In this document: positions 1,673 to 52,684 of the stretch, piece by piece
Numbering within the stretch: position 1 is the stretch's first letter
Layout of the letters: every line of letters starts with the position of its first letter
DNA from: a virus
Taxonomy: Duplodnaviria > Caudoviricetes
DNA length: 57,539 nt
IMG/VR virus record: IMGVR_UViG_3300033067_000809
Span: 1-57,539 of that record
Reading direction: 5' to 3' (one strand)
Translations under genes and position numbers: made by a program
The notes under the pieces: model-generated
The model's input: only the letters and a program-made list of their open reading frames with translations
What the model was told of the DNA's origin: nothing
The model's database searches: none

Positions 1673-1722
1673 CGGTTCAAACCATTGGCCAGCGCGCTGG
1701 CCCTTGTTGTGCATCGTCGCAC
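1671..1722 (+). promoter_or_regulatory. Conserved intergenic hairpin, copy 3
   Basis: 50/52 nt identical to 1330-1381; overlaps the upstream stop codon. Confidence 0.85.
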
Positions 1723-1741
1723 AGTGCCAAGAAAGATACAT

Positions 1742-12490: not shown

Positions 12491-12528
12491 GCGCCGCCAT
12501 CGCCGAAATCACAGGGGAACCCAAATGA
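12487..12528 (+). pseudogene. 13-codon remnant MSAAIAEITGEPK
   Basis: Coupled start fused directly to the AAIA(K/E).TGE C-terminal module. Confidence 0.45.
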
Positions 12529-12575
12529 ACTGCCCGGCCCGGGCAATCAGCACTCACCAAGGCCGGGTTGCCGCG

Positions 12576-13391
12576 TCAGTTGACCCGCGTGTTGGTGTTC
12601 GTGTTGACCGGGTTCGCCGTGAGCGTGCCTGCGCCGATGTTGATCGCCTGGTTGGTAGCGCGGATGCTCTGCACGGCGTCGTTGAGCAGGCCGAACATGT
12701 TGTTGAACTGGGCCTGCTGCTGGGCCTGCTGCTGCGCCTGGTTGACCGTCTGGGTGACCGTGATCTCGTTGTCGCGGGCGCGGCGGTTGGACCGCTCGTC
12801 GCTGCGCAGCTCGATGATGGCCGCATTGGCTTCGGCCAGCTGGCGGTTCAGCGTGGCTTCGTACTGGGCCGTGATGAGCGCCCGGGTGCGGTCTCCGTCG
12901 GCAGTGATGTTCTGCGACAGCGCGTATCGGTTCTCCAGCGTGGTCTTCTCCAGGCCGTTGAGCTGCTGCGCGAGCACCATAGCCATGGCGTTCACGGCCT
13001 CCTTGGTGCTGTCGACGCGGGCGGCCAGCGAGGACGCCACGTTGTTGAGCTGGGAGACGATGCCCGCAGACTGCGCAGCTTGCGAGGCTTCCATGGCAGC
13101 CGTGGAGACGGCGACCGCCTTGTCCACCTGGCCGATACCGGCCATGAGGTCCATGTTGGCCTGGTTCTGCTCCGGGGGGTTGCGCAACACAGCACCACCG
13201 ACCACACCGTCGGCGCCGTTGCCGCCGAACAGGCCGCCATTACCCTGGCGCAGCAGCGAGCCGAGGATCAAACCGCCGATCAGGCCGCCGCCACCGCCGC
13301 CACCGAACAGACCACCGCTGTCGCCGCCACCCTTGGTGGCCATCGACATCAACATCGGGCCCAGCCCGTCCATACCAGAGGATTCAGCCAT
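12576..13391 (-). CDS. Gly-rich hydrophobic N-terminus plus long coiled-coil and Q/N-rich tail (271 aa)
   Basis: GGAG SD 6 nt before ATG 13391; protein-like composition; hairpin TGCCCGG-C-CCGGGCA (12531-12547) downstream. Confidence 0.85.
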   Translation of the reverse strand: MAESSGMDGLGPMLMSMATKGGGDSGGLFGGGGGGGLIGGLILGSLLRQGNGGLFGGNGADGVVGGAVLRNPPEQNQANMDLMAGIGQVDKAVAVSTAAMEASQAAQSAGIVSQLNNVASSLAARVDSTKEAVNAMAMVLAQQLNGLEKTTLENRYALSQNITADGDRTRALITAQYEATLNRQLAEANAAIIELRSDERSNRRARDNEITVTQTVNQAQQQAQQQAQFNNMFGLLNDAVQSIRATNQAINIGAGTLTANPVNTNTNTRVN

Positions 13392-13487
13392 AGCAAACTC
13401 CAAAACCACTGCCACATCGGCAGCCAGAACATTTAGCACTAAAGCAATTCAAAACGCATTAGGGTAAACCCGCACAAGGAGAAGAAA

Positions 13488-14129
13488 ATGAGCCTACTTT
13501 CCGCAGCCGCCGACGACGAGGACGGCGACACCATCAACGCCCTGCGCGTCGCAGTCCAGCAGGCGTGCGACTGGATTTCCGAGGAGCCCAGCCGCCGGCC
13601 GATCAGCGCTGGCCACTTGCTCGCCATCCTCACCAATGCGCTGGCCGCCGCGCCGCTGCTGCCGAGCGACCATTGCGAGCAACACCTCGACATGGTGCCG
13701 GCGGTGCCTACGGCGTCCATGATGAACGAATGGTGCGACGCGGAGTGCGCCGCCTCCCCACATCTGCACCAGTCTGATGCGATGAAAGCTGGATACCGCG
13801 CCATGCTCGACGCCGCGCCGCAGCCGCCAACTGCCGAGGATTCCTCGGTGGTTGTTCAGCCGCAAGGCGAGCAAAAGCCGGTAGGAGAAGCTGGGCCAAT
13901 GCCCGTTGCAAAGGGCTTCACGATGGCCTGCTTCCCTGCAAGTGACGTTCCTGTTGGTACCAAACTCTACGCCGTGCCGCAGCCCAAGCGCGAGCCGCTG
14001 ACGGATGAGCAGATCGCAGAAGTCCTGATAGATGAGACAAACGGGCGATCTACCGGAATCGGATTCAAGACCCTACGCGCTTTTGCCCAAGCCATCGAGC
14101 GCGCCCACGGGATCAGGGGTGAGGCATGA
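13488..14129 (+). CDS. Mosaic hypothetical (YRAMLDAAP, REPLTDEQI, FAQAIERAHGI modules)
   Basis: AAGGAG SD. Confidence 0.75.
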   Translation: MSLLSAAADDEDGDTINALRVAVQQACDWISEEPSRRPISAGHLLAILTNALAAAPLLPSDHCEQHLDMVPAVPTASMMNEWCDAECAASPHLHQSDAMKAGYRAMLDAAPQPPTAEDSSVVVQPQGEQKPVGEAGPMPVAKGFTMACFPASDVPVGTKLYAVPQPKREPLTDEQIAEVLIDETNGRSTGIGFKTLRAFAQAIERAHGIRGEA

Positions 14130-29444: not shown

Positions 29445-29467
29445 AAAAGCCCCCGCGGGGGCTTTTT
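29443..29467. terminator. Bidirectional terminator between the two genome arms
   Basis: AAAAAAGCCCC-loop-GGGGCTTTTT. Confidence 0.9.
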
Positions 29468-29470
29468 GCA

Positions 29471-32400
29471 TCACTCGCCGGCCGCCTGCATGGCTGCAGC
29501 TTTTTCGTTGGGCCGGTACTGGACACCACCGATCGTCTGCTTCTCCCGCCTGGCCTGCTCTTGCGGCGCCTTGAGCAGGTTCGACACTGGCTGCGGCTGG
29601 AACCCTTCCGCCTGGCGGGCTCGCTGCAGCTTGCTCCAGGATTCGCGGGCGTCTTGCATGGCGCCAGTGTCGCGATCGCGCGCGGCGCGGGCGTAGGCGT
29701 TCTTGATCTTGCTGGCCCGCTCGGTGAACCGGTCTTTGGTGTCCTGGAACCGTTGGCGTTTCTCGTAGGTCTCGGACATGCCGGGCGTTGTGAAGCTCAG
29801 GGCCTTCCAGAACGTCTCCAGCTCGCTGACGTCTTTGGGCGGCAGGATCACGTCGCCGTTGCGCCGGGTCATGCCCTCGTCCGCTATGCGGTAGGCCTGC
29901 ATGGCAGATGACAACCCCTTGGGCATCAGCATCTCCAGGCCCTTGTACCAGTCGCCGTTCTTCATCAGCCCCAAGCCATCCAGACCTCGCACCACCATGC
30001 CGCCGCCAGCACCGCCCACGAGCTGACCGAAAGCCTCGAACTGGCCCGAGGGCGTTGACAGGTCCGCATTGCTGAACGGCATGACCGAGAGTGCGTTGCC
30101 CGCGCCGACGCTGCCGGAGAGGTCCAGGCCGCCGAGCGTCGGCGCGCCGCGCATGACCAGGCGAGCCCAGTCCTTGTCACCGATAGCACCCTCGATTTCC
30201 GCAGCCAGGTCGTACTCTTTGTCCTCATCGCCCAGCAGGGCCGCAGCCAAGAACTGCGCTGCGGCGAAGCCGGGGAGGCCGCGCAGGCCGGCGAAAGCCG
30301 CCGTGTGGAGCAGCGAGTAGGCCAGGGCCTTGGTCGCTGCGCGTTGCTCCTGCGTGGTGAATCCGGCGCTGCGCAGCATCTTGGCGTAGTACGACAGCTG
30401 GATGAGCTGGAACTTGCGGAACTGCAGCGCCACCTTGCCGACGCTCGTGTTGAACATGCGCGGGGCGTTGAACCGGCCATAGTCGCCGTGAGTCTCCGTA
30501 AGTATCCGGTCAGCGTAGTCAGTGGCCGCAGCGGTGTCGCCGCCGTTGCGCGCCAGCTCCAGCCGGTAGGCAGCCAGCGCCGTGGACATCCGGTTGAGGA
30601 TCTCACCCTTTTGCACCAGCATGCGCAGGCCCTTGTTGACCTTGTTCAGCCGGTCCTTGACCGGGCCGGCGCCTTCGACGCGGAACTCGCCCAGCTCGGT
30701 CTCCATGCCGACGTCGATGCGCCCGCGGTTTGCCAGCTCCTGGATGGCGTTCTTCTCGCCGGCCGTGTTGCCCACCAGGCTGTAATCGAACTGCCGGCCA
30801 GAAAGCAGTTTGGTCGACATGATCATGGCCTTGAGGTCTTTGTATGCCTCGAACTGAGCGCTCGACGCAGCTGCATACCCATGCTTGCCTGCCATCACCG
30901 GTACCGACATCATCCACGGCTGCGTCAAGTTGGCCAGGTAGTAGGCCGGGCTAGTCATCAGGTAGTAGACCGAAGACAGGTGCAGCAGCTTGCGCAGCGC
31001 GGGGGTGCTGGAGTCCTCCATCGACTGGGCGTAGCGCGCGGTCAGTTCGTTGAAGAGTTCCGCTTTGCGCGCGCGGTTGCCGCCCCGGTCGCGCTCCTTG
31101 CGCATAGCCTGGATGCTGTCTTGGATTTTGCGGTTGTACTCCACAGACGCCAGGAAGTTAGCATCGGCCCGCCCCTGGGTGGTGAACGACCGCAGCATGT
31201 CGACTTCACCGGCAACCCCCCGGCGCTTCATCTCCGTTTTGCGGGCGCTGTTCTCGGCCAGGGCCTCGAGGTAGAGATCGGTCACCATGCGGCGCAGCTT
31301 TGCAGCCCCCGCTTCGCCGGCGGCCTGCTTGGCTTCTACTTGCGATTGCAGCTTAGTCAGCGCGCGCAGCACCGAGTCCCCGCCGAACAGCGCGTCCATG
31401 TTGGCCTCCCGCTCGAAGAAGTCCACCGCGTCGCCATCCCGACCAAAGTGCCCCTGGGCCTGCAGCTGGCGCGCCAGCTCTCGAGCCTCTGCACGCCCCT
31501 CCGTAAAGCTGACGTGGTAGTGGTCGGCCTGCTTCTGCATCGTCTGGATCTGCTTTTGGTCCCCGGCGGCCTCCGCAGCTCTGTAGGCCTGCGACTTCGC
31601 GACCACCGCATAGGTGCCCATGCGCTTGATGGGCGCATACGGGCGACCTTCCTGCGTGGCAAACAGGTCCTTGAACCGGGTGATGACCGCCTGCTTCTCG
31701 CCTTTCAGCTTGGCTTCAAGCGCTGCGTTACCGTCAGCGGCGGCCGCAGCGATCAAGGCGTCGTACTCCGTGTTGGTGTGGTCCATGACCGTTTTCTTTT
31801 TCAGGGCGAGCATCTTGTCACCGTGGTCAAACACCGCTTTGACGAAGACCTGCGCTTCGTCACTCAAGGCATCGAAGCGGTCCTGCATGTCGCGGTCGGC
31901 GTATTTGCCGTACCCCCACTTGCCCTCACGGGTGGAGTCGAAAATGAACTGGTTGGCGGTGTCAGCCTGGCCCTTCTCCGGCACCAGCCCGCGGTCTTTT
32001 TCGGGCACCAGCGCATACAGGTCGGCGATCTTCTCGACCTCACGTTCCAGCTCGCGCGCTTTGGTGTCGCGCCGGGCCAGGTTGTCGCCGAAGTTCTTGG
32101 CGGCTTGGATGCCGGCCTGGCTGGCGAACCCAATCAGGTCGCTGGTGAACACCACACGGTCCAGCGCCTTGTTACCCCAGCTGCCCATGGTGTCGAGCGA
32201 ATCGCGCACCGCAGGCTGCACCTGGGCGGGGAGCTGGTTGATAGCCCGCTGGACTTGGCCGGCCGTGGCTTTCTTGGGCACCGACATCTTCACGGTGTTA
32301 TCGGGCGCCGACGCAGCGCGGACGTCGCGCGACACAATCTCTGCCGCACCGTAGGCCAAATCCACCACGTCCTGAGCGGTCATAGTGTCCAGCTCACCGA

Positions 32401-35400
32401 GGCCGATCTTGGCGATGGCCTGCTTGAGCAGGCGCACCACAGTGCTGAACCAGCGAGCCAGATCACCCTTCATGCCCATCGCAGTCGGGTCGATACCGTT
32501 CTCCACAGCAGCGCTGACAAAATAAGCCACAGTCTCCGAATTGACCTGGGCATTAGGCGTGCCTGCCGATACCACGCGGGTCAGGGCTTCCTGTGCCAAC
32601 GTGGACTCGAGCGAGCCGTCATTAAGGTCGGCCCAATTGCGAACCTGCGCGGCCAGCGAAGCAAACTCACCCGCATCCAGCAGTTCTTCGATTCCGAGGT
32701 GAACGCCGATTTCATGCAGCAGAACCGATCGGGCGTTGCCCGGGGCAATGTTGCCAGCCACCAGGTAGGCCTTGCCACGCCACACGAATCCGTTGGGCTG
32801 TTCACCTTTGAGCGCACGGCGCGCGCCGGGCGGCAGTTGCTCCACCGACTGCACGATCGACACCAGGTCGGGAGTCAGCGACAACCCCAGCTTGGCGATC
32901 TCGGTTTTCACACGCGCTACGTTAGATCCACCGCGCTCAACGGTGCTCACCATCTGCTGCGTGCGCTCGTCTTGGGCTGCGGCAGACTTGTCGTCGATGA
33001 TGGTGGCGCCCTCAGCGATCTTGTCCAAGAACTGCTTCATCGTCTCGTTGGGCAGGTACTTGGAGCCCTTGAGCGAGTAGTAGAACTTGCGCATCGCCGC
33101 GCCCAGCCGGGAGAAGAACTGCTCGACCACACCCACTGGCTTGTCCGAAGAGACCGCCCAGCGCGAGACCTGGTCGGCGTACCATTCGCTGAAGCTCTTC
33201 CAGTATGGAGTCAGTTCGTTGGCCTGCATGCCGGCCGGGATCGAGGTGGCGCGGCCAGTCGCACGCGCGCGCAGCTCGGCAACGAACTCGCGGGCTGTCC
33301 TCTTGGCGTTGGCGGCCACGAACTTGTCATGCTCGGCGCGGATAGCCTTCTGCGTGTCCTTGTCGGCGTTGTTGAACGCCTCGCGCTCGTGGATGTGGCC
33401 GAGCTCATGCGCCAAAGTCTCCAACATTTTGAGGGTGCTGCTGCCCTTGGTAAACGCAATGTAGTAGTCGGCGCCCACCTTGCGCGCAGATCCAGCCTCA
33501 TTGGCGTTCAGAGCCGCGGAGCCAATGGCGCGATGTGAGCCTGTGAACTCACCCTTGTCAGCGCGCGCATCCTCGATAGTGGTGACATACACGTTGGTCT
33601 TGACGCCGAGCTGGTTCTTCCAGCCCCGCAGGACACCAGTGACGCGCGGGTCGACTCCGGCTGAGAATGACAGGCCGTCAGCATCAAATCTGATGAATGG
33701 GTCGGTGGCGTGCTTCTCAGCAGCGGCAGCCTCCAGCTCCTTGACTTTGGCCACCAGCATGGCTTTCTGTTCGGGGGTGAACAGGCTGCCGGTGTAGCGG
33801 TCGACACCAACAGACGTGCGGGAGTCCCCCATGGCGCCAGAGTAAACCGGCTGCCCGTTGAGGGCTGAGTACCCCAGGATCAGCGCCATGTCACCTTCTT
33901 GCCACGCCACCATGCCGCCTAAGTTCTCGGCGTGCAACTCAGCTTTCGCACGCTGCGCTGCAGTGGTGGCCTCTTTACGCACCTCAGCGGCCGGCTGCAT
34001 ACGCTGCATCTCGCGGCGCACGTCGGCGGGAGTCCAGTTGTCCTCACCAAACTCGACAAAGTCCGTCTGCTGCGCGCGGGTCAGCTCGGCAAACTTGGGC
34101 GCTCCAGGAATGCCAGTGGCGACAGCGTCCCAGGCCTCGGCGGCCAGCTCGCGCTGAGTCTTGATGACCGCCGGAGCGCTTACTTTTTCGGCTTGGGGGC
34201 GGCTTTCGGTTTTGCCGCCTTTTCCGGCAGGCTTTTCGGCGCTGGGTACTTCTTGTCCCACTTCGCCGCCAGCTCCGGCTTCTGGCTGTGCAGGAACTTT
34301 TGCTGCGCTTTCGACTTGTACGGCATTGTCAACTCCTCGGGCTTTCAGTAGGTCGGTGATTTCACCAGCGAGCTTGGTGTTCTTGATGGTGTCGCGAACG
34401 TAGGGCAGCAAAGTCTGCAGGTCTTCGGTCGACAGCGGCTCGAGCTTGCGGTTCGCAGCTTTCCATCGGGCCTGGGCAGCCTGCTGCTCGGGCGTGGCCT
34501 TGGACTCAGCAACCACGGGTGTGCGGACGGCCTTCGGTGGTTTGGCGCCGACTTCCTCTTTGCGTTTCTTGGCCTCGGTCCACGCCTCTCGCAGAATCCT
34601 ATTCTGCTCTTGGATGGCGGACGCTTCCGCTTCCGTCACAGCCGCCGCCATGCCTTCCTTAGCTTTCGCAGCCGCGTCTCGGGTAGCTCGAGCGGCACTG
34701 CGGAACTCCGGCCCCATACTGCGAAGCTGGGCGGTAGCAGTGCGCAGCTCTTGGATTTGACGCTCCAGTGTTGCCAGCTTGCCGATCGCACGATCAACTA
34801 CAGTGCCGGACGCTTCTTGTGACCACCAGCGGTCGGTGCCGTCACTCACGCTCATACCAGAGCCTTCGTCCGCATCAAATTCAATGCCGATTTTGGACAT
34901 CTCCTTGGATGCGCCAGCCGCGTCGGTGCGAGCGTCTGCATCTTCCAGCTGCTCTATCTGGCCCTTGAGGTCAGCCAGCTGCTGTACTTGCTCTGGGGTT
35001 GGCTGCTCTACATTCTGCAAGTCCTTGTATGCCTTTTGGGCTTTGCTCAGCGCAGTTGCATCCCCACGAGATTTGGCTCGGATGCCCAGTAGAGACAACA
35101 CTTGAGATTCCGTGTAGCCCAGTCGAATACCGGCCTTCACCATCTTCGGCTCGTCAATGCGCGACTTCGCCGTGTGGTAGTTGATGCCCATGGCTTTGGC
35201 CACGGCTTCCAACACGATAGTTTTGGACCCCTCTGGTGCGATCTGGCGGGCTTTCAGGAGCTTCTTGGTCTGCGCAATGAACTCGTCTTGATTGCCTGCC
35301 CCCCTAGACGTGCGGAACATCTCGCGGAAGATCGCGTCAGCCGCGGCTTCGTCCATGGGCATCTCTCGCGCGTCAGCAAGCGCCACGCCAACGTCGGCGT

Positions 35401-37675
35401 CAGCAACCTGCGCTTCCAGTTCGGCAGCCAGACCTTTCTGGCCGGCGGTTTGTGCGATTTCTGCAGCGATGCGCAGGTCTTCATCCTTAGGCAGGTTCAA
35501 CGCTGCGCGCTGCGGAGAGATGCTGGCTGGGGCTTCGCCCTCGGGAGCTACATACGCAGCCGGCGCGCCAACCACAGGTTGCACTCGGCGCTTGCGAGAC
35601 ACGACCGGCTCCACGGGTGCTGCAGGAGCAGGTGTCGACGGCGCGCGCGGTGCGGCTAGGTCCGCAGGTGCTGCAGGAGCCACAACGGGGGTGGCGGCCG
35701 CAGGCGTTGGGCGTTCCAAGCCGACAGGCGTGGTCTGGGGCGCAGCCACAGGAGTCGCAGCCGGATATCCTTGCTCTTCAAATCGCTTAATGTCCGCCGG
35801 TGACCTAATCAGACCAGCGTCGAAAGCTGACCTGGCGCGCACCAGCACAGGGTCTTTGACGCCAGAAATGGTGCTTTTTCCTTGCTGCAAAGCCGTAAAT
35901 GCGGCGTCGTAGAAATTAGTCGATATCGCACCGGCCAGCCCGACAAACGCGCGGTCAAGACCGGTGGTACTTTGTTTTGCGCCGGCGGTTGGCGTAGCCG
36001 GCAAGGCCAAACTGGATGGCGCAGTCGCTGGCGCGCGCGGCGCAGTCAGGTCCACCGGTGCAGAACCGGCCGGAGCTGCAGGCTGAAGAACACCCTGACG
36101 AAACACGCGCGGCGCGGGGGCGGCCGGGGCAACCGTGGTGGGTGCCTGTGGGGCTTGCAAACCAACTTGTGGCGGCGCTGCAGCTGCGGCCCGCTCAACA
36201 GCCCATTGATCGAGCGCCTTGATGACTGAGTCCAGTTTCCCCCTGGAGCTCAAGCCTTTGCCGGAGGCCGCCATATTCCAGAACGCGTCCATCTCCGGGA
36301 TCGTCGGGTTGATCCCGTTGGTACCCATGACGTCCCACAACTCGCGCGCCAGCTTGGTGGGCTTCTTGCCGCCCATGCGCGCCAGGATCTCTGCGTCGAT
36401 GTCGACGCCTTGGTCCGCAGTGCCCGCTTGGTCGATGCTCGGGGCTTGAGGCCCCTCGTTCGGGCGCATGAACCCATTCGGCGGCTGTGGGCCTGAGTTT
36501 GGCGGCACAAACCCCGGGCGGGGCATCGGACCTTGAATGGCCTCGAGCTGCCAGAGCTGCTGCAGGTCGTCCAACTTGATGGCGCCGTTGCGCAGCATAA
36601 TCGCGTCGGCCATGGACAGCTCGCGCTCATGTCCAGCCATGCTGCTGGTGTCCTGGACGAACTGCCCGCTGCCTCCTTCGAACAGGTTGCCTACGGCCTT
36701 GGCGTAGTTCTTGTCTGTAGCGTAGAGCGTCTCGTCGACACCAAGCGCCTTGTTGAACCAGTCTTGCGTGAATGGTTGCACTTCGGGTTTGAGCTGGTCA
36801 GGTGCGACGCCGACCGCCTGTTGTGTACCGCGAGCAGCGAGGTCCGTAGCGCCGCCAGCATCTGCGGCAGCTGATCGGCGCCAACCACCAAGACCACCAC
36901 TCACTGCACCACCAAGCAAACCGCCAGCAACTAACGACTCCTGGTACCGGCTAACAGCATCAGGATCGAACATGGTCTCAGAGCTCACAGCGGTTCGCCC
37001 CGCCTGGTTTGCAAACTCTTGCAGCGTTTCAGCGGTGCCTTCAGCCAGCATCCCTTTGGCACCGGTGGCTGCGGTGCGTGCGACCCCGCCGGTAAACCCC
37101 GTCAGCTTGTCCAGTTGGCCGGCGCCGAGTGCGTCCAGAGCGCGAACCCCAGTGCCCAGAGAGCGTCGGGCAAACATGCCCTCTATGCCGAAGCGATCGG
37201 CCGCGCCATATGCCAGGCCCAACGGTATTGCGGAAGTCAGATCGGTGCGGCCGCCAGCCTCACGCTGGTTTTGGAGGACGTCGCCGAGCCCTAGTGCAGA
37301 GCCTGCAGCCCACGCAGCGCCAGGGCCGCCGATTAGGCCTGCTGCTGCCACCGGGATCATGGACGGCAAAGATTGTGCGCCAACTCCAGCCAGCCACTGG
37401 GCGGTCTCCCCAAGCCCCTGGGCTTCGGCAAAAGTCCTCGGTGCGCCGGTCTGCTCGAAGTAGCGCTGTGCGTCGGCGTTTGCAATGGCCTGCTGCTCTC
37501 GGCGCCAGTCGCCAGAAGACAGCCCGACAGCTTCGCCAATACCCAGCAGGCCGGCGCCCAGGCTCCGAGCTCCAGAGCCCAGCATTGTGCCGAGTCCAAC
37601 GCTCTGGGGGACTTCTGCGGGGGTGCCACCCCCGAACATGGCTTCAAATTCTTCGGGAGAAAGCTGCTTAGGCAT
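29471..37675 (-). CDS. Giant internal virion/ejection protein (2734 aa) with two zincin-like motifs
   Basis: Last late gene; Gly/Ala-rich N-terminus; AHELGH and LHEIGVH motifs. Confidence 0.8.
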   Translation of the reverse strand: MPKQLSPEEFEAMFGGGTPAEVPQSVGLGTMLGSGARSLGAGLLGIGEAVGLSSGDWRREQQAIANADAQRYFEQTGAPRTFAEAQGLGETAQWLAGVGAQSLPSMIPVAAAGLIGGPGAAWAAGSALGLGDVLQNQREAGGRTDLTSAIPLGLAYGAADRFGIEGMFARRSLGTGVRALDALGAGQLDKLTGFTGGVARTAATGAKGMLAEGTAETLQEFANQAGRTAVSSETMFDPDAVSRYQESLVAGGLLGGAVSGGLGGWRRSAAADAGGATDLAARGTQQAVGVAPDQLKPEVQPFTQDWFNKALGVDETLYATDKNYAKAVGNLFEGGSGQFVQDTSSMAGHERELSMADAIMLRNGAIKLDDLQQLWQLEAIQGPMPRPGFVPPNSGPQPPNGFMRPNEGPQAPSIDQAGTADQGVDIDAEILARMGGKKPTKLARELWDVMGTNGINPTIPEMDAFWNMAASGKGLSSRGKLDSVIKALDQWAVERAAAAAPPQVGLQAPQAPTTVAPAAPAPRVFRQGVLQPAAPAGSAPVDLTAPRAPATAPSSLALPATPTAGAKQSTTGLDRAFVGLAGAISTNFYDAAFTALQQGKSTISGVKDPVLVRARSAFDAGLIRSPADIKRFEEQGYPAATPVAAPQTTPVGLERPTPAAATPVVAPAAPADLAAPRAPSTPAPAAPVEPVVSRKRRVQPVVGAPAAYVAPEGEAPASISPQRAALNLPKDEDLRIAAEIAQTAGQKGLAAELEAQVADADVGVALADAREMPMDEAAADAIFREMFRTSRGAGNQDEFIAQTKKLLKARQIAPEGSKTIVLEAVAKAMGINYHTAKSRIDEPKMVKAGIRLGYTESQVLSLLGIRAKSRGDATALSKAQKAYKDLQNVEQPTPEQVQQLADLKGQIEQLEDADARTDAAGASKEMSKIGIEFDADEGSGMSVSDGTDRWWSQEASGTVVDRAIGKLATLERQIQELRTATAQLRSMGPEFRSAARATRDAAAKAKEGMAAAVTEAEASAIQEQNRILREAWTEAKKRKEEVGAKPPKAVRTPVVAESKATPEQQAAQARWKAANRKLEPLSTEDLQTLLPYVRDTIKNTKLAGEITDLLKARGVDNAVQVESAAKVPAQPEAGAGGEVGQEVPSAEKPAGKGGKTESRPQAEKVSAPAVIKTQRELAAEAWDAVATGIPGAPKFAELTRAQQTDFVEFGEDNWTPADVRREMQRMQPAAEVRKEATTAAQRAKAELHAENLGGMVAWQEGDMALILGYSALNGQPVYSGAMGDSRTSVGVDRYTGSLFTPEQKAMLVAKVKELEAAAAEKHATDPFIRFDADGLSFSAGVDPRVTGVLRGWKNQLGVKTNVYVTTIEDARADKGEFTGSHRAIGSAALNANEAGSARKVGADYYIAFTKGSSTLKMLETLAHELGHIHEREAFNNADKDTQKAIRAEHDKFVAANAKRTAREFVAELRARATGRATSIPAGMQANELTPYWKSFSEWYADQVSRWAVSSDKPVGVVEQFFSRLGAAMRKFYYSLKGSKYLPNETMKQFLDKIAEGATIIDDKSAAAQDERTQQMVSTVERGGSNVARVKTEIAKLGLSLTPDLVSIVQSVEQLPPGARRALKGEQPNGFVWRGKAYLVAGNIAPGNARSVLLHEIGVHLGIEELLDAGEFASLAAQVRNWADLNDGSLESTLAQEALTRVVSAGTPNAQVNSETVAYFVSAAVENGIDPTAMGMKGDLARWFSTVVRLLKQAIAKIGLGELDTMTAQDVVDLAYGAAEIVSRDVRAASAPDNTVKMSVPKKATAGQVQRAINQLPAQVQPAVRDSLDTMGSWGNKALDRVVFTSDLIGFASQAGIQAAKNFGDNLARRDTKARELEREVEKIADLYALVPEKDRGLVPEKGQADTANQFIFDSTREGKWGYGKYADRDMQDRFDALSDEAQVFVKAVFDHGDKMLALKKKTVMDHTNTEYDALIAAAAADGNAALEAKLKGEKQAVITRFKDLFATQEGRPYAPIKRMGTYAVVAKSQAYRAAEAAGDQKQIQTMQKQADHYHVSFTEGRAEARELARQLQAQGHFGRDGDAVDFFEREANMDALFGGDSVLRALTKLQSQVEAKQAAGEAGAAKLRRMVTDLYLEALAENSARKTEMKRRGVAGEVDMLRSFTTQGRADANFLASVEYNRKIQDSIQAMRKERDRGGNRARKAELFNELTARYAQSMEDSSTPALRKLLHLSSVYYLMTSPAYYLANLTQPWMMSVPVMAGKHGYAAASSAQFEAYKDLKAMIMSTKLLSGRQFDYSLVGNTAGEKNAIQELANRGRIDVGMETELGEFRVEGAGPVKDRLNKVNKGLRMLVQKGEILNRMSTALAAYRLELARNGGDTAAATDYADRILTETHGDYGRFNAPRMFNTSVGKVALQFRKFQLIQLSYYAKMLRSAGFTTQEQRAATKALAYSLLHTAAFAGLRGLPGFAAAQFLAAALLGDEDKEYDLAAEIEGAIGDKDWARLVMRGAPTLGGLDLSGSVGAGNALSVMPFSNADLSTPSGQFEAFGQLVGGAGGGMVVRGLDGLGLMKNGDWYKGLEMLMPKGLSSAMQAYRIADEGMTRRNGDVILPPKDVSELETFWKALSFTTPGMSETYEKRQRFQDTKDRFTERASKIKNAYARAARDRDTGAMQDARESWSKLQRARQAEGFQPQPVSNLLKAPQEQARREKQTIGGVQYRPNEKAAAMQAAGE

Positions 37676-40257: not shown

Positions 40258-40674
40258 TTATTCCTTTCGCAGCCAGCGACAATTGTCGGGCCGCATTACC
40301 AAAATGTGCATGTCTGCGCCAGGCGCGCCGTCTCGCATGACAAATTCTTCCTCCCAACCCAGGTGCTTGTCGAACGCCAATATGTGAGGCTCGTTTGAAG
40401 GCACCATGCCGGTCAGGCGCTTGAGCCCACAACGATTGAACGCATAATCCGCCGCCGACTCCAGCAGTCGCAAAAACGCCTTGTTGGGCTTGCGCACCGC
40501 AATGTGGCAGGTGGCGTTGGCGCCGTTGAAGTTGTTGAACACAATGCCCGCAGTGAGCTCCCCGTTCGACTCAACCCCCATGGCGTAGAAACTACCCCAC
40601 TCGCCGGTCTGCCCCACCTGGCACGCCACCCACTCGCCGACATACGCTTTGCGATCAAAAACGAGGTTTGCCAT
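40258..40674 (-). CDS. GNAT-fold acetyltransferase-like protein
   Basis: YAFN..GLKRLTG.V...HLGW.EE; typical position before ejection genes. Confidence 0.8.
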   Translation of the reverse strand: MANLVFDRKAYVGEWVACQVGQTGEWGSFYAMGVESNGELTAGIVFNNFNGANATCHIAVRKPNKAFLRLLESAADYAFNRCGLKRLTGMVPSNEPHILAFDKHLGWEEEFVMRDGAPGADMHILVMRPDNCRWLRKE

Positions 40675-45245: not shown

Positions 45246-45419
45246 TCAGGCCGGCTTGCGGCGTTTTTCGTAAATCGACCAGGCCACCCCGGCAAGCGTG
45301 GCGGCCGCGCCGGCCGCTGCGTCGATTGTCTCACCGCTGACACCGTACTTGGCCGCCAACGCGCCGCCTGCAAGCGTGAGAACGTGCCGGACCAGTGCAA
45401 ATACTACCTGCGAGTTCAT
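45246..45419 (-). CDS. Putative two-TM holin
   Basis: VRHVLTLAGG.L...G..WS plus basic tail. Confidence 0.7.
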   Translation of the reverse strand: MNSQVVFALVRHVLTLAGGALAAKYGVSGETIDAAAGAAATLAGVAWSIYEKRRKPA

Positions 45420-45934
45420 GGCATGCTTTCTGTTGCGCCACCGACGCATATTTGGTACTCAGCATGGCGCCGCCGAGTCAGCCCGGCCAGGGCCCGGCCG
45501 GCTTGTTTGTTCCACCGGAGCAGCTCACGGCACGCACCCGGGTAGTCCGGCGGATCGGCGCGCAGCTTGCGCACCAGCGTGCTCGAACAGGCAGCGCTGG
45601 TACCCACATTGAAGGCCCAGGACACATAGGCATCCCACTCGTGTTGGTAGAGCGCGACGTCGCTAAGGCAAGCGCGCAGCTCGCGCTCATGTCGCTGCGC
45701 ATCGGACAACAGTTGGACCAGCGCCCGGTCTGGCGTGGTGCGGTCGCCCAGCTTGACGCCAGCGGTCGACCCCCAGCCACTGGTCGGAACGTCCTGCGGC
45801 GTCGGGAGGTATGCCTCGCCGCGGTAGGTTTCCCAGCCGGCAATGCCGACCAAAGTTGCCGCTGATAGCGATAACGCCGCAATAGTGGTACGACTGCCCT
45901 TCACCACCACAGTCTCCACATCAGGTACGGCCAA
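45416..45934 (-). CDS. SAR-type endolysin (GH24 lysozyme); start may be a GTG near 45904
   Basis: Hydrophobic N-terminus, then WE...AY....DVPT.GWGST; FNVG; GLTRRR.AE. Confidence 0.9.
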   Translation of the reverse strand: MAVPDVETVVVKGSRTTIAALSLSAATLVGIAGWETYRGEAYLPTPQDVPTSGWGSTAGVKLGDRTTPDRALVQLLSDAQRHERELRACLSDVALYQHEWDAYVSWAFNVGTSAACSSTLVRKLRADPPDYPGACRELLRWNKQAGRALAGLTRRRHAEYQICVGGATESMP

Positions 45935-45956
45935 AGAATTAAAACCATCAGATGCA

Positions 45957-46175
45957 TCACCGCTCCTTTGCCTGGCATTCAGTGTGGCGTAAATCGCGCC
46001 AGATTGCCAGCAGCTTATGGCCGATCATCAACACGGTGTAGATCAACGTCGCCCACAAAACAAGATCCGAAACCGGCACGCCGGCAATAGTGGCGATCGA
46101 AACACTGGCTGGTGGGATTGCTTTTGCAACCATGGCGCCCGCTGATTCGGCTGCAGTTTGGTGTGCTGTGTCCAT
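45957..46175 (-). CDS. Putative holin/pinholin
   Basis: Small TM protein directly upstream of the endolysin. Confidence 0.65.
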   Translation of the reverse strand: MDTAHQTAAESAGAMVAKAIPPASVSIATIAGVPVSDLVLWATLIYTVLMIGHKLLAIWRDLRHTECQAKER

Positions 46176-47838: not shown

Positions 47839-47861
47839 AAAAAGGGGGCCTAAGCCCCCTT
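47839..47861 (-). terminator. Terminator after the major capsid gene
   Basis: GGGGGC-TTAG-GCCCCC-TTTTT on the - strand. Confidence 0.8.
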
Positions 47862-50180: not shown

Positions 50181-50215
50181 GATTCTATACCACTTGACTG
50201 GGTAGTGGTCAAGTG
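50181..50215 (-). promoter_or_regulatory. Candidate promoter (TTGACC...TATAGAAT) overlapped by an 8-bp inverted repeat
   Basis: CACTTGAC 50191-50198 / GTCAAGTG 50208-50215. Confidence 0.5.
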
Positions 50216-50583
50216 AGATTTTCCAATTTGTACAGCGTCGAGTCCATCAACGCCACGGCCTCATCGATCAGATTCTGAATTTCAGAATGGTCGCACAGGC
50301 CGCTGCGTGTGTCATCGACATACCGGCGTAACGACCGAATCATCATCACCGGATCGGACTCCGCCTTGAATGGCAGTGCTGGGTATTGCAGGACACCATA
50401 CCGACCTTGGTATGCCTCGGCAATGGCGTCGACGTGGTCGACCAAGTCCTCATAGAAGCTACCCAGGGCCATGTGTTTAGCATAGCTCTTAGTTGTCAGA
50501 TGCATGACGTGCGCGTTGGTTCGTGCGTGCATCAGCTCCATCAGGAAGGCCCCCATCGAAGGCGATGTGTTGATACCCTTCAT
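50209..50583 (-). CDS. Ferritin/Dps-like protein (DUF5856-like)
   Basis: H..HL.T.SYA.H.AL..FYE.L....D..AEAYQG; IDE.......YKL; GGAG SD. Confidence 0.85.
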   Translation of the reverse strand: MKGINTSPSMGAFLMELMHARTNAHVMHLTTKSYAKHMALGSFYEDLVDHVDAIAEAYQGRYGVLQYPALPFKAESDPVMMIRSLRRYVDDTRSGLCDHSEIQNLIDEAVALMDSTLYKLENLT

Positions 50584-50596
50584 GTTCAATCTCCAG

Positions 50597-52684
50597 TTAA
50601 ACGCCACTAGGGCGGCTGACCATAATCGAGCCCTCGCGCCCACCAACTTGTGAGCCGTCCGGGAGCATGTTCTTCGGCGCGGGCGCCGGGGCTGCGCCGG
50701 CTTGCGTCGGAGCGCCTGCCGGCGCACCAAGCAGCATCGCCAGTTGCTGTTGGAGCTGCATAATGACCTGCTGCTGCTGCTCCAGCGTGCTGAGCGTTTG
50801 TCGATCTGGGACGATGCGGTCGACGTTTCCGTTGAGGTTGCGCGCGGTGTCGCGCAGCAGCTCGGCCGTGCCACCAGTCCCCACAATCTGCTGAGCCACC
50901 GGGCTGCTCAGCACCAGCTGCAAAAACTCGTTGCGGCGGATTGCCTCAGCTTCCTTGATCACCAGCGACGACGCCCCCTTGGCCACGATATTGACATCGC
51001 CAACCAGGTCGGGGTCTGCGCTGTAACGCAGGTTATCCTGATACAGCCGCTGGATGGCCGGCACAATGACGTTCTGGTCAATGTTGGAGATGACCTGCTT
51101 GATGCCTTTACCGGCATTGCTGATGAGCATCGACAAACCCGAAGACGTGCGCCCGGCGCCGGGGCTGTTTTCCCCCGACATGTACCTCGGAATCATGGTG
51201 TCTTCGTCTGCTCGGGCCGAGAACTTCTCGAGCACCGCCATGAGCTCGTTGGCGTTGCTGTTGGGCTGGAAAAACGACAGCGGGGGCTCGGCCGTGTTGA
51301 CGTCCGACGCCACGAACTGCCACAGCTTCCACGGATGCAGCTCTGTGATGTCGTCGCCGGGCGGGAGCCGGCTGATGTTAACGCCCACTTGAGGGCCAGA
51401 ACTGATGCCCATGTTGTTGGCAAGGGCCCGAGCTGCTGCGTTCACCATGGCCTGCGCGTCGCGGCACAGATCGGTCACACCCTTGCCATCCACGGACCCA
51501 GGCAGGTTCTCGTAGCTGGTCAGGTAGTAGGGTTTGCGGCCGAGCGGGTCGTAATTCAGCACCGCCCGAATCACTGTCGACCCGATGAGCCACACCTCGC
51601 AGGGGTAGCTCATGTCAATGTCAGGGACATCGCTCTCGGGTAGACCCCACTCGCGCAGCAACTTGCCCGGCACGGAGTCCCACAGCTGAACTGCATCCGT
51701 GAGGTCTTCGCTCAAGATCGAGTCGATGACGTACTTCCCCTCGGCTTCAGCCTTGGATGCGTCGGTCCACAGCCAGTGCTTGAGACCCCCGCCGGAGAAG
51801 TCTTTGAGGACCGTTCGGATGGCCGAGTCGTTGTATCCTGGCACGCCAATCAGCGCCTGCAGGTCGTCCGCCGTCATGCGATGACGCTCAATGACAAAGC
51901 CATCCTGGATGTCCCAGGCCCACGGCGCCCAGTAAACGTGAAACGGGTCGACGCGCTCCCACTCGTTGCGGATTTCTTCGGATGGGATCAGCTTTCCGTC
52001 CTGCCAGCGCAGCGTTTTGCGCTTGCGCTTGATCGGGCCTTTGAGCACCGCGTATGGGAAGGTGACCACATCGTCCAAGAACTCGTTGAGCGCCGCGTGC
52101 CAGCCGCCTTCTTGGAGCTGGTCTTCCATCTTGCGCTCCATGCGCTCGACGCGAGTTTCGGCTTCCTCGCGGAGCTGGCGCATCGCAGCGTCGCGCATCT
52201 GGGCTGCCACCTGGCGCAGCGTCTCGTCGTCCGGCATGGCCCCCTGCTGCATTGCGAGGTCGGTCAGCTGCTGCGCCAGCTTGGACTGCAGACCCTCCAT
52301 GATCTCCGGAGGCAGCGTGGGGTCCGGTGTGGCATCCAGGCTCCACGGTTTATCCGCGCCGGCGCCGAGCAGGGTGTCGCGCAGCCAGCTGGTAGCAGCT
52401 CGGCACTTCACGGATGTGAGGTTGATGTAGATGTCCGAGCCGCCGTCCTGGCGGATCTGGGCCAGCTTGTCCTGGTCATACTCTCCGTTGCGCTGGCGCA
52501 GGCACTGCAGCATGCGCTCTTCAAGCTTGCGTTTTGCCAGGCGCGCGGAGTCCCAGCGCTTTCGGACGTGTGCGGCCAACCCCTGGATAACCGGCTGGTT
52601 TTGCAGCTGGGCGTTTTCAGAGCGCGCCTGGGCCTCGAGATCCGCAGCGCGCGCCACAGGGATAAGTGCAATTCCTACTGCCAT
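50597..52684 (-). CDS. Portal protein
   Basis: 695 aa between TerL and scaffold; RTSSGLSML motif. Confidence 0.88.
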   Translation of the reverse strand: MAVGIALIPVARAADLEAQARSENAQLQNQPVIQGLAAHVRKRWDSARLAKRKLEERMLQCLRQRNGEYDQDKLAQIRQDGGSDIYINLTSVKCRAATSWLRDTLLGAGADKPWSLDATPDPTLPPEIMEGLQSKLAQQLTDLAMQQGAMPDDETLRQVAAQMRDAAMRQLREEAETRVERMERKMEDQLQEGGWHAALNEFLDDVVTFPYAVLKGPIKRKRKTLRWQDGKLIPSEEIRNEWERVDPFHVYWAPWAWDIQDGFVIERHRMTADDLQALIGVPGYNDSAIRTVLKDFSGGGLKHWLWTDASKAEAEGKYVIDSILSEDLTDAVQLWDSVPGKLLREWGLPESDVPDIDMSYPCEVWLIGSTVIRAVLNYDPLGRKPYYLTSYENLPGSVDGKGVTDLCRDAQAMVNAAARALANNMGISSGPQVGVNISRLPPGDDITELHPWKLWQFVASDVNTAEPPLSFFQPNSNANELMAVLEKFSARADEDTMIPRYMSGENSPGAGRTSSGLSMLISNAGKGIKQVISNIDQNVIVPAIQRLYQDNLRYSADPDLVGDVNIVAKGASSLVIKEAEAIRRNEFLQLVLSSPVAQQIVGTGGTAELLRDTARNLNGNVDRIVPDRQTLSTLEQQQQVIMQLQQQLAMLLGAPAGAPTQAGAAPAPAPKNMLPDGSQVGGREGSIMVSRPSGV

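Follow-up and report, generated by a model that had tools for sequence, protein, structure and literature searches.

We have identified a lone antisense gene, here called T, in the 57,539-nucleotide (nt) IMG/VR virus record IMGVR_UViG_3300033067_000809 (Duplodnaviria; Caudoviricetes), the whole of which is referred to below as the window. T occupies positions 12576-13391 of the minus strand and encodes a 271-amino-acid (aa) protein that is predicted to form a parallel homo-oligomeric rod. It is a real, strongly coding gene organised as its own unit, and profile comparison shows that its product belongs to the same superfamily as T5.077 of Escherichia phage T5. The 57.5-kb window has two convergent arms. 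The plus arm (1-29.2 kb) encodes a dUTPase, a thymidylate synthase, a family-A DNA polymerase, an exonuclease, a helicase and a DUF927 primase-helicase. The minus arm (29.4-57.5 kb) encodes a large terminase (TerL), an SU10-type portal, a gene in the scaffold position, a capsid protein, structural proteins and a lysis cassette. It also encodes an internal virion protein, a protein of 2734 aa and a J-like tail fibre together with the protein for its assembly.

The full minus-strand open reading frame (ORF) at the T locus spans 12576-13439 and opens with a GTG, with the ATG at 13391 lying inside it. T is read from this ATG because 23 of 23 aligned relatives begin at or near it (with MAES, MADS or MAE) and because a GGAG ribosome-binding site (13398-13401, minus strand) lies 6 nt upstream; the coding sequence so defined, stop codon included, rests on ORF, start, codon and homologue evidence. 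The GGAG is preceded by a T run (GTTTTGGAG), and the same U-rich plus GGAG layout is found at the capsid and scaffold-position genes. GC content by codon position is 0.65, 0.45 and 0.86. The third-position value (GC3) equals that of thymidylate synthase and, among filter-passing ORFs, is exceeded only in the capsid gene (0.87) and the ORFs nested therein. AT skew is positive along the plus arm except in the 12-13 kb bin, where the sign flips, and the remaining filter-passing minus-strand ORFs within 1-29 kb lie inside or overlap plus-strand genes. T is the sole convincing minus-strand gene of the 29-kb replication arm, as an initial annotation of this DNA had proposed; that annotation was also right to give it a Shine-Dalgarno site of its own and an AT-richer upstream spacer. 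The spacer (13392-13487) separates T from the divergent plus-strand gene at 13488-14129 and has a GC content of 0.448 against 0.608 for the whole window. Presumably the T promoter is located in it, and no sigma-70 promoter consensus was found at T.

A conserved stem-loop with a 5-bp stem and a 5-nt loop lies just upstream of the T ribosome site (13409-13423, minus strand). Across six related phages 30 of 30 cells pair, three of the five pairs are changed on both sides, and the covariation was equalled in one of 500 shuffles. Downstream, the hairpin described initially is indeed present (12528-12548, minus strand), terminator-like, 28 nt past the stop codon and followed by a T-containing tail. 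It proves little, because the terminator scan gave two sites where 1.4 would be expected, with an RNA fold z-score of only 0.39. The idea of an independently organised unit is borne out, since T has a ribosome site to itself, a conserved hairpin on its 5' side, a terminator-like one behind it and an orientation antisense to its neighbours. An 8-mer found upstream of both T and the first late gene (AATGCGTT) occurs in four copies against 1.7 expected, a count reached in eight of 100 shuffles, and was dropped.

The T protein is rich in small and amide residues (39 Ala, 35 Gly, 26 Asn, 25 Leu, 23 Gln) and contains no Cys, Trp or His. The absence of Cys and Trp had been pointed out before, and the protein motifs quoted at that time are present to the letter; some relatives do contain Trp. 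Residues 27-47 (13251-13313, minus strand) form a hydrophobic segment, GLFGGGGGGGLIGGLILGSLL, that carries the glycine zipper G36xxxG40xxxG44. The three glycines are invariant in 24 close relatives, and the segment is also aligned to the T5.077 family. Its Kyte-Doolittle maximum over 19 residues is 1.37 and its position-independent summed Hessa value is +4.0. In the AlphaFold2 model, built with 46 aligned relatives, a short helix at residues 37-49 is followed by one single long helix at residues 74-246 (12654-13172, minus strand), to which periodicity and the oligomer model also point. The block-mean predicted local distance difference test score (pLDDT) stays above 88 between about residues 91 and 210 and falls below 50 from residue 241, and disorder is modelled for the Gly-rich N-terminus as well as for the final 30 residues. 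The family signature DGDRTRALI lies within the helix at residues 165-173. The initial annotation had spoken of heptad repeats; the hydrophobic period along the whole helix is 3.67 residues, that of 11/3 hendecads and not the 3.5 of heptads, and two T relatives have a deletion of exactly 11 residues.

That the protein self-associates had also been proposed, and modelling favours this. A three-copy complex of T scored 0.61 (runs 0.62, 0.61 and 0.61) against 0.00 for the best of three controls, above a mark that 20 of 30 proteins solved as one-chain pairs, and one of 23 solved as single chains, had attained; the T job differed from this calibration in using three copies and its own alignment. The runs share at least 35% of their contacts, with a partner pLDDT of at least 61, and the confident contacts are in register (169-169, 173-173, 126-126) from residue 75 to 180. 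The model thus supports a parallel homo-oligomeric rod; the trimer passes the mark and, as the only stoichiometry modelled, does not fix the number of chains. The confident part of the predicted rod is straight and measures about 16 nm; including the rest of the helix would bring this to as much as about 26 nm. In a parallel, in-register trimer all glycine zippers would therefore lie at one end and all tails rich in Gln and Asn (Q/N-rich) at the other. The tail region (residues 207-271; 12579-12773, minus strand) is delineated by the alignment of relatives and consists of alternating xQxQ and xNxT stretches and a conserved C-terminal end, AINIGAGTLTANPVNTNTNTRVN. From residue 207 it alternates with I/V/Q on one face and T/N/A on the other, continues as xQxQxQ and finishes with NTNTNT, a pattern that is kept in distant relatives and that suggests a beta-prone tail. 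The pairing of a glycine-rich hydrophobic segment with a Q/N-rich tail, noted at the outset, accordingly holds, the segment being conserved and the tail confirmed.

Of 6194 candidates in a word-indexed protein search with T, 2244 proved to be relatives at E ≤ 1e-3; the best 120 of the 2244 carry no Pfam domain and are named only 'hypothetical protein'. Among 50%-identity representatives searched exhaustively, 307 match at E ≤ 1e-3, 157 at E ≤ 1e-10 and 18 at E ≤ 1e-30. Alignments of T with relatives show conserved ends and a variable middle. T itself matched no Pfam family at E ≤ 1, Gly-zipper families included, and nothing in PHROGs but phrog_29654 at E 0.058. Pfam searches with 46 relatives gave 18 families at E ≤ 0.1, none of them a Gly-zipper family and none in more than two of the 46; a match to SctB2 in one of the 46 (2e-4) was taken as compositional. 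The best hit of a PDB sequence profile search had an E-value of 0.22 and was coiled-coil noise, and the ESM Atlas gave only unnamed viral clusters.

Acinetobacter phage At2 (XLQ30922.1) was the sole direct tblastn match of T among 50,697 cultured-phage records, and its protein also appeared in the search of 50%-identity representatives (E 3.2e-21). Through it, gp38 of Iodobacter phage PhiPLPE was matched, and through gp38 a protein of Flavobacterium phage FL-1 (APZ82874.1), at an E-value of only 6e-3. All three are only 30-42% identical to T and share with it the same full-length order of motifs, namely the glycine zipper, NDGEKTRALI, a Q-rich stretch and an N/T-rich C-terminus. The label 'putative tail-fiber protein' on gp38 is an unverified annotation, and the portion of the Comeau 2012 paper on the PhiPLPE group that was accessible makes no mention of gp38. 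When one genome for each of 185,579 prokaryote species was scanned, relatives of T were found in none in the first scan and in one in the second. The idea of a host-derived or prophage gene was rejected on these counts and on the phage-like character of the lone match, and the T family is essentially viral, with no copy found in prophages. That match (L084 in our numbering of loci) lies on a 20-kb contig of an uncultured Aquiluna metagenome-assembled genome (MAG); most of its ORFs match IMG/VR phage loci, and it seems to be phage sequence that was binned with a bacterial MAG.

Within IMG/VR, 152 T loci were confirmed from 199 pattern matches, and 80 were kept. Copies 60-68% identical to T occur in phages of about 100 kb, and a homologue of the window's capsid protein was found in none of the four records that are at least 90% complete, in which T is about 60% identical. 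T copies were found in both podoviruses and myoviruses, and this distribution indicates that T is horizontally mobile. In RNR-type phages, many T genes (L015 9749-10663, L031, L044 and others) have a conserved 5' extension of about 48 codons. A strong in-frame internal ribosome site, AAAGGAGCCTAAAATG, precedes the MAE start of these extended genes, so that long and short isoforms are possible. One long form (P0196) begins with a low-complexity N-terminus of 340 residues rich in G, S, Q, R and Y.

A further link to a cultured phage is T5.077 (YP_006905.1). Compared as single sequences the likeness is weak: BLASTP between T5.077 and one T-family member (P0140) gave an E-value of 5.8, and hhalign with T5.077 alone a probability of 83.8% over 16 columns. 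For a profile, 30 relatives of T5.077 were collected and 16 aligned; hhalign of this 16-row alignment against the 46-row alignment of T gave a probability of 98.3% and an E-value of 1.5e-14 over 150 columns (T 33-188 against 89-293). T5.077 consists of a charged N-terminus, EPVNVF, a glycine zipper, a long helix of A, Q, N, S and T, and ECCCEL. It shares with T the order of a variable N-terminus, the glycine zipper, a second Gly-rich stretch, the A/Q/N/S/T helix and a '..TR..I....L' motif. The most divergent T5.077 relatives read 'CCC..ADGNATRALINQLDKENLQSQL' ('CCC..ADGxATRALIN..NLQ'), which corresponds to the T signature 'DGDRTRALI....NRQL'. In the T5.077 family the CCC of the central helix is present without exception (16 of 16 rows), whereas T, which has lost it, reads ENRYAL at the aligned position, and a Q-rich stretch and N/T-rich tail of its own replace the T5.077 C-terminus. 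Since T has no Cys, it is filed as a CCC-less sister branch and not as a T5.077 orthologue; on the profile evidence it is assigned to a cysteine-less branch of the uncharacterised and very widespread T5.077 superfamily.

The two genes are also organised alike, as lone opposite-strand units. T5.077, T5.078 and T5.079 are all opposite in strand to their neighbours and form a unit with an annotated promoter (P12) and a bidirectional terminator within the early/tRNA region of T5. Small Pro- or Cys-rich partner genes accompany T5.077 and relatives of T. T5.078 is a poly-Q protein, and on visual comparison the T-adjacent partner described below has an N-terminus (MPLYLPLPPTIEDNDLF) similar to the Pro-rich part of T5.079 (KPTLILPPRVDF); the likenesses between T5.079, that partner and the small CCC ORF of the window's clade are unproven. 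T5.077 is not known to be among the published T5 virion proteins. A text search of a library of papers did not find the name 'T5.077', and the part of a preprint on the T5 anti-defence island that was available does not mention the T5.077-079 cassette.

The gene-neighbourhood survey called for initially was carried out on the 80 IMG/VR loci, many of them near-duplicates, in which genes were called heuristically by between-locus conservation. Seven loci with less than 1 kb downstream were dropped, which left 73 evaluable loci. The next conserved gene after T is a co-oriented gene of the collagen-like/beta-sandwich family fam0 in 66 of them. A Dps-like gene comes next in two, with fam0 further along the row, and an opposite-strand ORF in five. 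The T-adjacent fam0 copy has a Pro/Phe-rich start and an (E/N)DND(L/V)(F/I)IN motif, and many fam0 proteins contain collagen G-X-Y repeats. Most loci carry tandem arrays of two to five small paralogous proteins (e.g., L034 10723-12521 and L020 10627-12791), which have collagen repeats or a YGVVKVGS-type N-terminus, have in common the C-terminal domain of about 90 residues described below and are interspersed with a BclA_C-like family. The wider surroundings of T vary, with class II ribonucleotide reductase (RNR), dUTPase, SbcCD, PhoH, Dps, IscU/IscA, RNA ligase or TerL nearby. Many of the listed loci have T running in the direction of nucleotide-metabolism genes and not of capsid or tail genes.

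The window's own T clade comprises L002, L003, L004, L013 and L023/24. Identity between L013 and the window is 65.5% for the polymerase, 77% for the helicase, 49% for the primase and 68.5% for T, and T is antisense at the same place throughout the clade, upstream of the replication genes. Translationally coupled to T by TGAnATG is a small ORF of 49-67 aa in the four complete clade copies (L002 1280-1429, L003 3309-3461, L013 10788-10937 and L023 3564-3767); the L004 copy (37 aa) ends with its contig. Its consensus, ...V.EHD.V.Y..PEPKPEP..ECCCKT.NI.LHFH, combines an EP/KP repeat with (E/D)CC(C/H)K..NI.L.FH, and a strong terminator follows the ORF. No signal peptide or lipobox was found in these small ORFs and no partner ORF after T in the window, which has lost the CCC ORF. 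Some 60-110 nt upstream of T, four members of the clade (L002, L004, L013 and L023) share a conserved direct repeat, (A)GTCGTAY-N8-AGTCGTAT. It separates T from a divergent LuxR/GerE-type helix-turn-helix gene (fam54) and is a possible operator; both repeat and regulator are absent from the window. The FL-1 homologue likewise forms, with a 65-aa ORF, a two-gene unit antisense to all its surroundings.

Elsewhere in the window, the lysis cassette (45246-46175, minus strand) sits within the structural arm and consists of a holin-like gene with a 72-aa product (45957-46175), an endolysin with a hydrophobic, SAR-like N-terminus (45416-45934) and a 67-aa protein with two transmembrane segments (45246-45449). 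No spanin pair was recognised near the endolysin. The 2734-aa ORF (29471-37675, minus strand) has no Pfam domain, and over its final 770 or so residues it matches the DarB-like phrog_10089 (E 2e-52). It resembles the giant virion-type proteins of Bcep22-like podophages, and the match therefore suggests a Bcep22-like podophage rather than an N4-like one. The N4-like idea was abandoned because this ORF matches a DarB-like PHROG and not a virion RNA polymerase. N4 gp17, considered as a precedent for a virion gene in an early arm, shares its strand with its neighbours and hence does not apply. Also in the structural arm are two non-structural genes, namely an acyl-CoA N-acyltransferase-like gene adjoining the tail-fibre assembly gene (40258-40674, minus strand) and an ORF (50209-50886, minus strand) that has a match to a 'starvation-inducible transcriptional regulator' PHROG in its C-terminal half. 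Two GC-rich hairpins that have T runs on either strand, one at the arm junction (29448-29463) and the other just downstream of the capsid gene (47844-47859), are probably bidirectional terminators. Within an apparently non-coding stretch of the plus arm (about 1.33-2.44 kb), two copies of a 39-nt element (1346-1385 and 1687-1725, plus strand), each opened by a GC-rich hairpin, differ by one loop base (ATTGGCCAGCG(T/C)GCTGGCCCTTGTTGTGCATCGTCGCAC); they could be early promoters, terminators or origin repeats.

Taken together, we tentatively favour the reading that T is an autonomous accessory rod that acts at the host envelope and takes part neither in the virion nor in lysis. T would be an accessory gene, predicted to be abundantly translated, with its own small transcription unit, much like a phage 'moron'. 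The clustered glycine-zipper ends of its product may insert into or lie on the host cytoplasmic membrane, and the rod would project from there. The distal tail would dock a Pro-rich partner, which would be the CCC peptide in close relatives and the collagen-like/beta-sandwich protein in most others. Such an assembly might alter the infected cell's envelope, which it could stabilise or remodel, or it might block superinfection. An exclusion or toxin function, as raised initially, may apply to T. The non-virion accessory role, which we hold with reserve, is backed by the autonomous and often antisense cassette and by the position of T5.077 in an early region. The accessory reading is preferred also because T is co-oriented with nucleotide-metabolism genes in many loci, because phages with unrelated capsids share it, and because both of its ends are conserved, the glycine zipper above all.

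Several observations weigh against this reading. On simple hydropathy scales the zipper segment is no canonical membrane helix, given a hydrophobic core of only 11-13 residues, the low hydropathy values reported above and a Glu within the core in some relatives, and inspection of the sequences revealed no signal peptide in T or its partners. Side-by-side packing of long helices comes easily to complex models of the kind used here, in which the trimer alone was modelled. The others speak for the main rival account, in which T is a virion-associated trimeric fibre or fibre anchor that holds the particle with its N-terminal end and carries collagen-like or knob proteins on its distal tail, the window having kept the stalk alone. 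The modelled parallel trimer resembles fibre stalks such as that of reovirus sigma1, and the gene directly downstream of T is the co-oriented collagen-like/beta-sandwich gene in most loci. All fam0 proteins have a C-terminal domain of about 90 residues that weakly matches T4_gp9_10_N as well as PHROGs of tail fibres and baseplates, and a family neighbouring fam0 weakly matches BclA_C. In PhiPLPE and At2 the T homologue is co-oriented within virion/tail-fibre regions. PhiPLPE gp38 sits between gp34 and gp35, confirmed as virion proteins by mass spectrometry, the tail-fibre gene gp36 and tail genes; the record lists only gp34, gp35 and gp63 as so confirmed and is uninformative for gp38. The At2 homologue is found three genes after one that is homologous to the J-like tail fibre of the window, and T follows TerL in L005 and L040. 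Some long forms of T have an N-terminal beta-sandwich of about 85 residues (pLDDT 77-91) that is Ig-like. Foldseek against PDB with a long-form model found nothing at E ≤ 1e-3, VIA Z-scores of at most 7.6 were commonplace and indicate a generic Ig-like beta-sandwich, the ESM Atlas returned nothing for this N-domain, and reovirus sigma1 came up only as a generic long-helix match. The capsid-like GC3 and strong ribosome site of T would also fit a structural protein. We nevertheless regard a fibre as somewhat unlikely. The homologous T5.077 is encoded in the T5 early region behind an annotated early-type promoter, and T is antisense to its neighbours in the window, as are its counterparts in FL-1 and T5. 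Copies 60-68% identical occur in phages with unrelated capsid proteins, and in podoviruses as well as myoviruses, so that no common virion docking site is evident. Conserved ends around a variable middle are the opposite of what a receptor-binding fibre displays.

The accessory reading also has to be set against two roles away from the particle. T might be a non-virion cytoplasmic scaffold that templates or chaperones trimers of its collagen-like partner, or that builds a Q/N-rich mesh or condensate. The lack of signal peptides, the beta-prone (xQ)n and (xN/T)n stretches, the poly-Q nature of T5.078, the low-complexity N-terminus of P0196 and the tight linkage of the partner genes to T would agree with this, and coiled-coil chaperones of trimeric fibres, e.g., T4 gp57A, are known. 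We consider it improbable, since the window's T is 65-85% identical to partnered copies despite having no partner gene and since the highly conserved glycine zipper is left unexplained. Very unlikely, in our estimate, is a lysis fusogen, the substitute for missing spanins raised in the initial annotation, which would be anchored in the inner membrane, span the periplasm and fuse or disrupt membranes at lysis. The lysis cassette indeed has no recognisable spanin pair, the coiled coil that comes after the N-terminal hydrophobic segment of T is comparable in length to the width of the periplasm, and the Pro-rich small ORF coupled to T in close relatives loosely recalls Pro-rich o-spanins. T lies 32 kb from the lysis genes, however, and no lysis linkage was found in PhiPLPE, At2, T5 or the 80 IMG/VR loci; FL-1 is a partial exception, its homologue lying four small genes from a putative lysin but antisense. 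The small ORF is absent from the window and has no lipoprotein features, and no lipoprotein partner was found in the window or the relatives. T itself has no Cys, hinge, second fold-back helical region or C-terminal anchor, its hydrophobic segment scores below the thresholds for a membrane helix, and most phages pair it with collagen-like partners.

Whatever its role, T is of interest as an autonomous, horizontally mobile module with swappable partners, and modules of this kind have repeatedly been found to encode exclusion, counter-defence or host-takeover functions. The T branch alone, with its 2244 virus-confined relatives at E ≤ 1e-3, has no Pfam or PHROG entry, and T is kept at 60-85% identity across phages with unrelated capsid genes. 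The T5.077 link places the question in a classical model phage that lends itself to routine knock-out, localisation and time-course work, and the cultured links tie a family of freshwater and wastewater metagenomes to At2, PhiPLPE and FL-1. A broader conjecture, which we put forward as a long shot, is that the T/T5.077 superfamily consists of phage-made envelope struts. These would be glycine-zipper-anchored parallel trimeric hendecad rods of about periplasm width that, with exchangeable Pro-rich, Cys-rich or collagen-like partners, re-engineer the Gram-negative envelope and have spread horizontally among unrelated virulent phages. If so, envelope geometry might keep the tails of rival phages from the inner membrane, or a new device for membrane fusion or disruption might be at hand.

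Among known systems other than T5.077, spanins of the lambda Rz/Rz1 type and class I fusion proteins are close in architecture to T, for which an N-terminal Gly-rich hydrophobic segment followed by a parallel coiled coil of about periplasm length is predicted. Unlike them, T has no lipoprotein partner, lysis linkage, Cys, second helical region or hairpin, or C-terminal anchor, and it is built on hendecads, not heptads. The class I fusogen suggested initially thus does not stand beyond this architectural likeness: T has one continuous predicted helix (74-246), a disordered Q/N tail, no second heptad region and no second hydrophobic segment. From holins T differs in its length of 271 aa, its distance of 32 kb from the endolysin and a hydropathy below threshold. 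With the glycine-zipper membrane proteins, in which GxxxGxxxG is an oligomeric membrane-packing element, T has this motif in common at G36xxxG40xxxG44.

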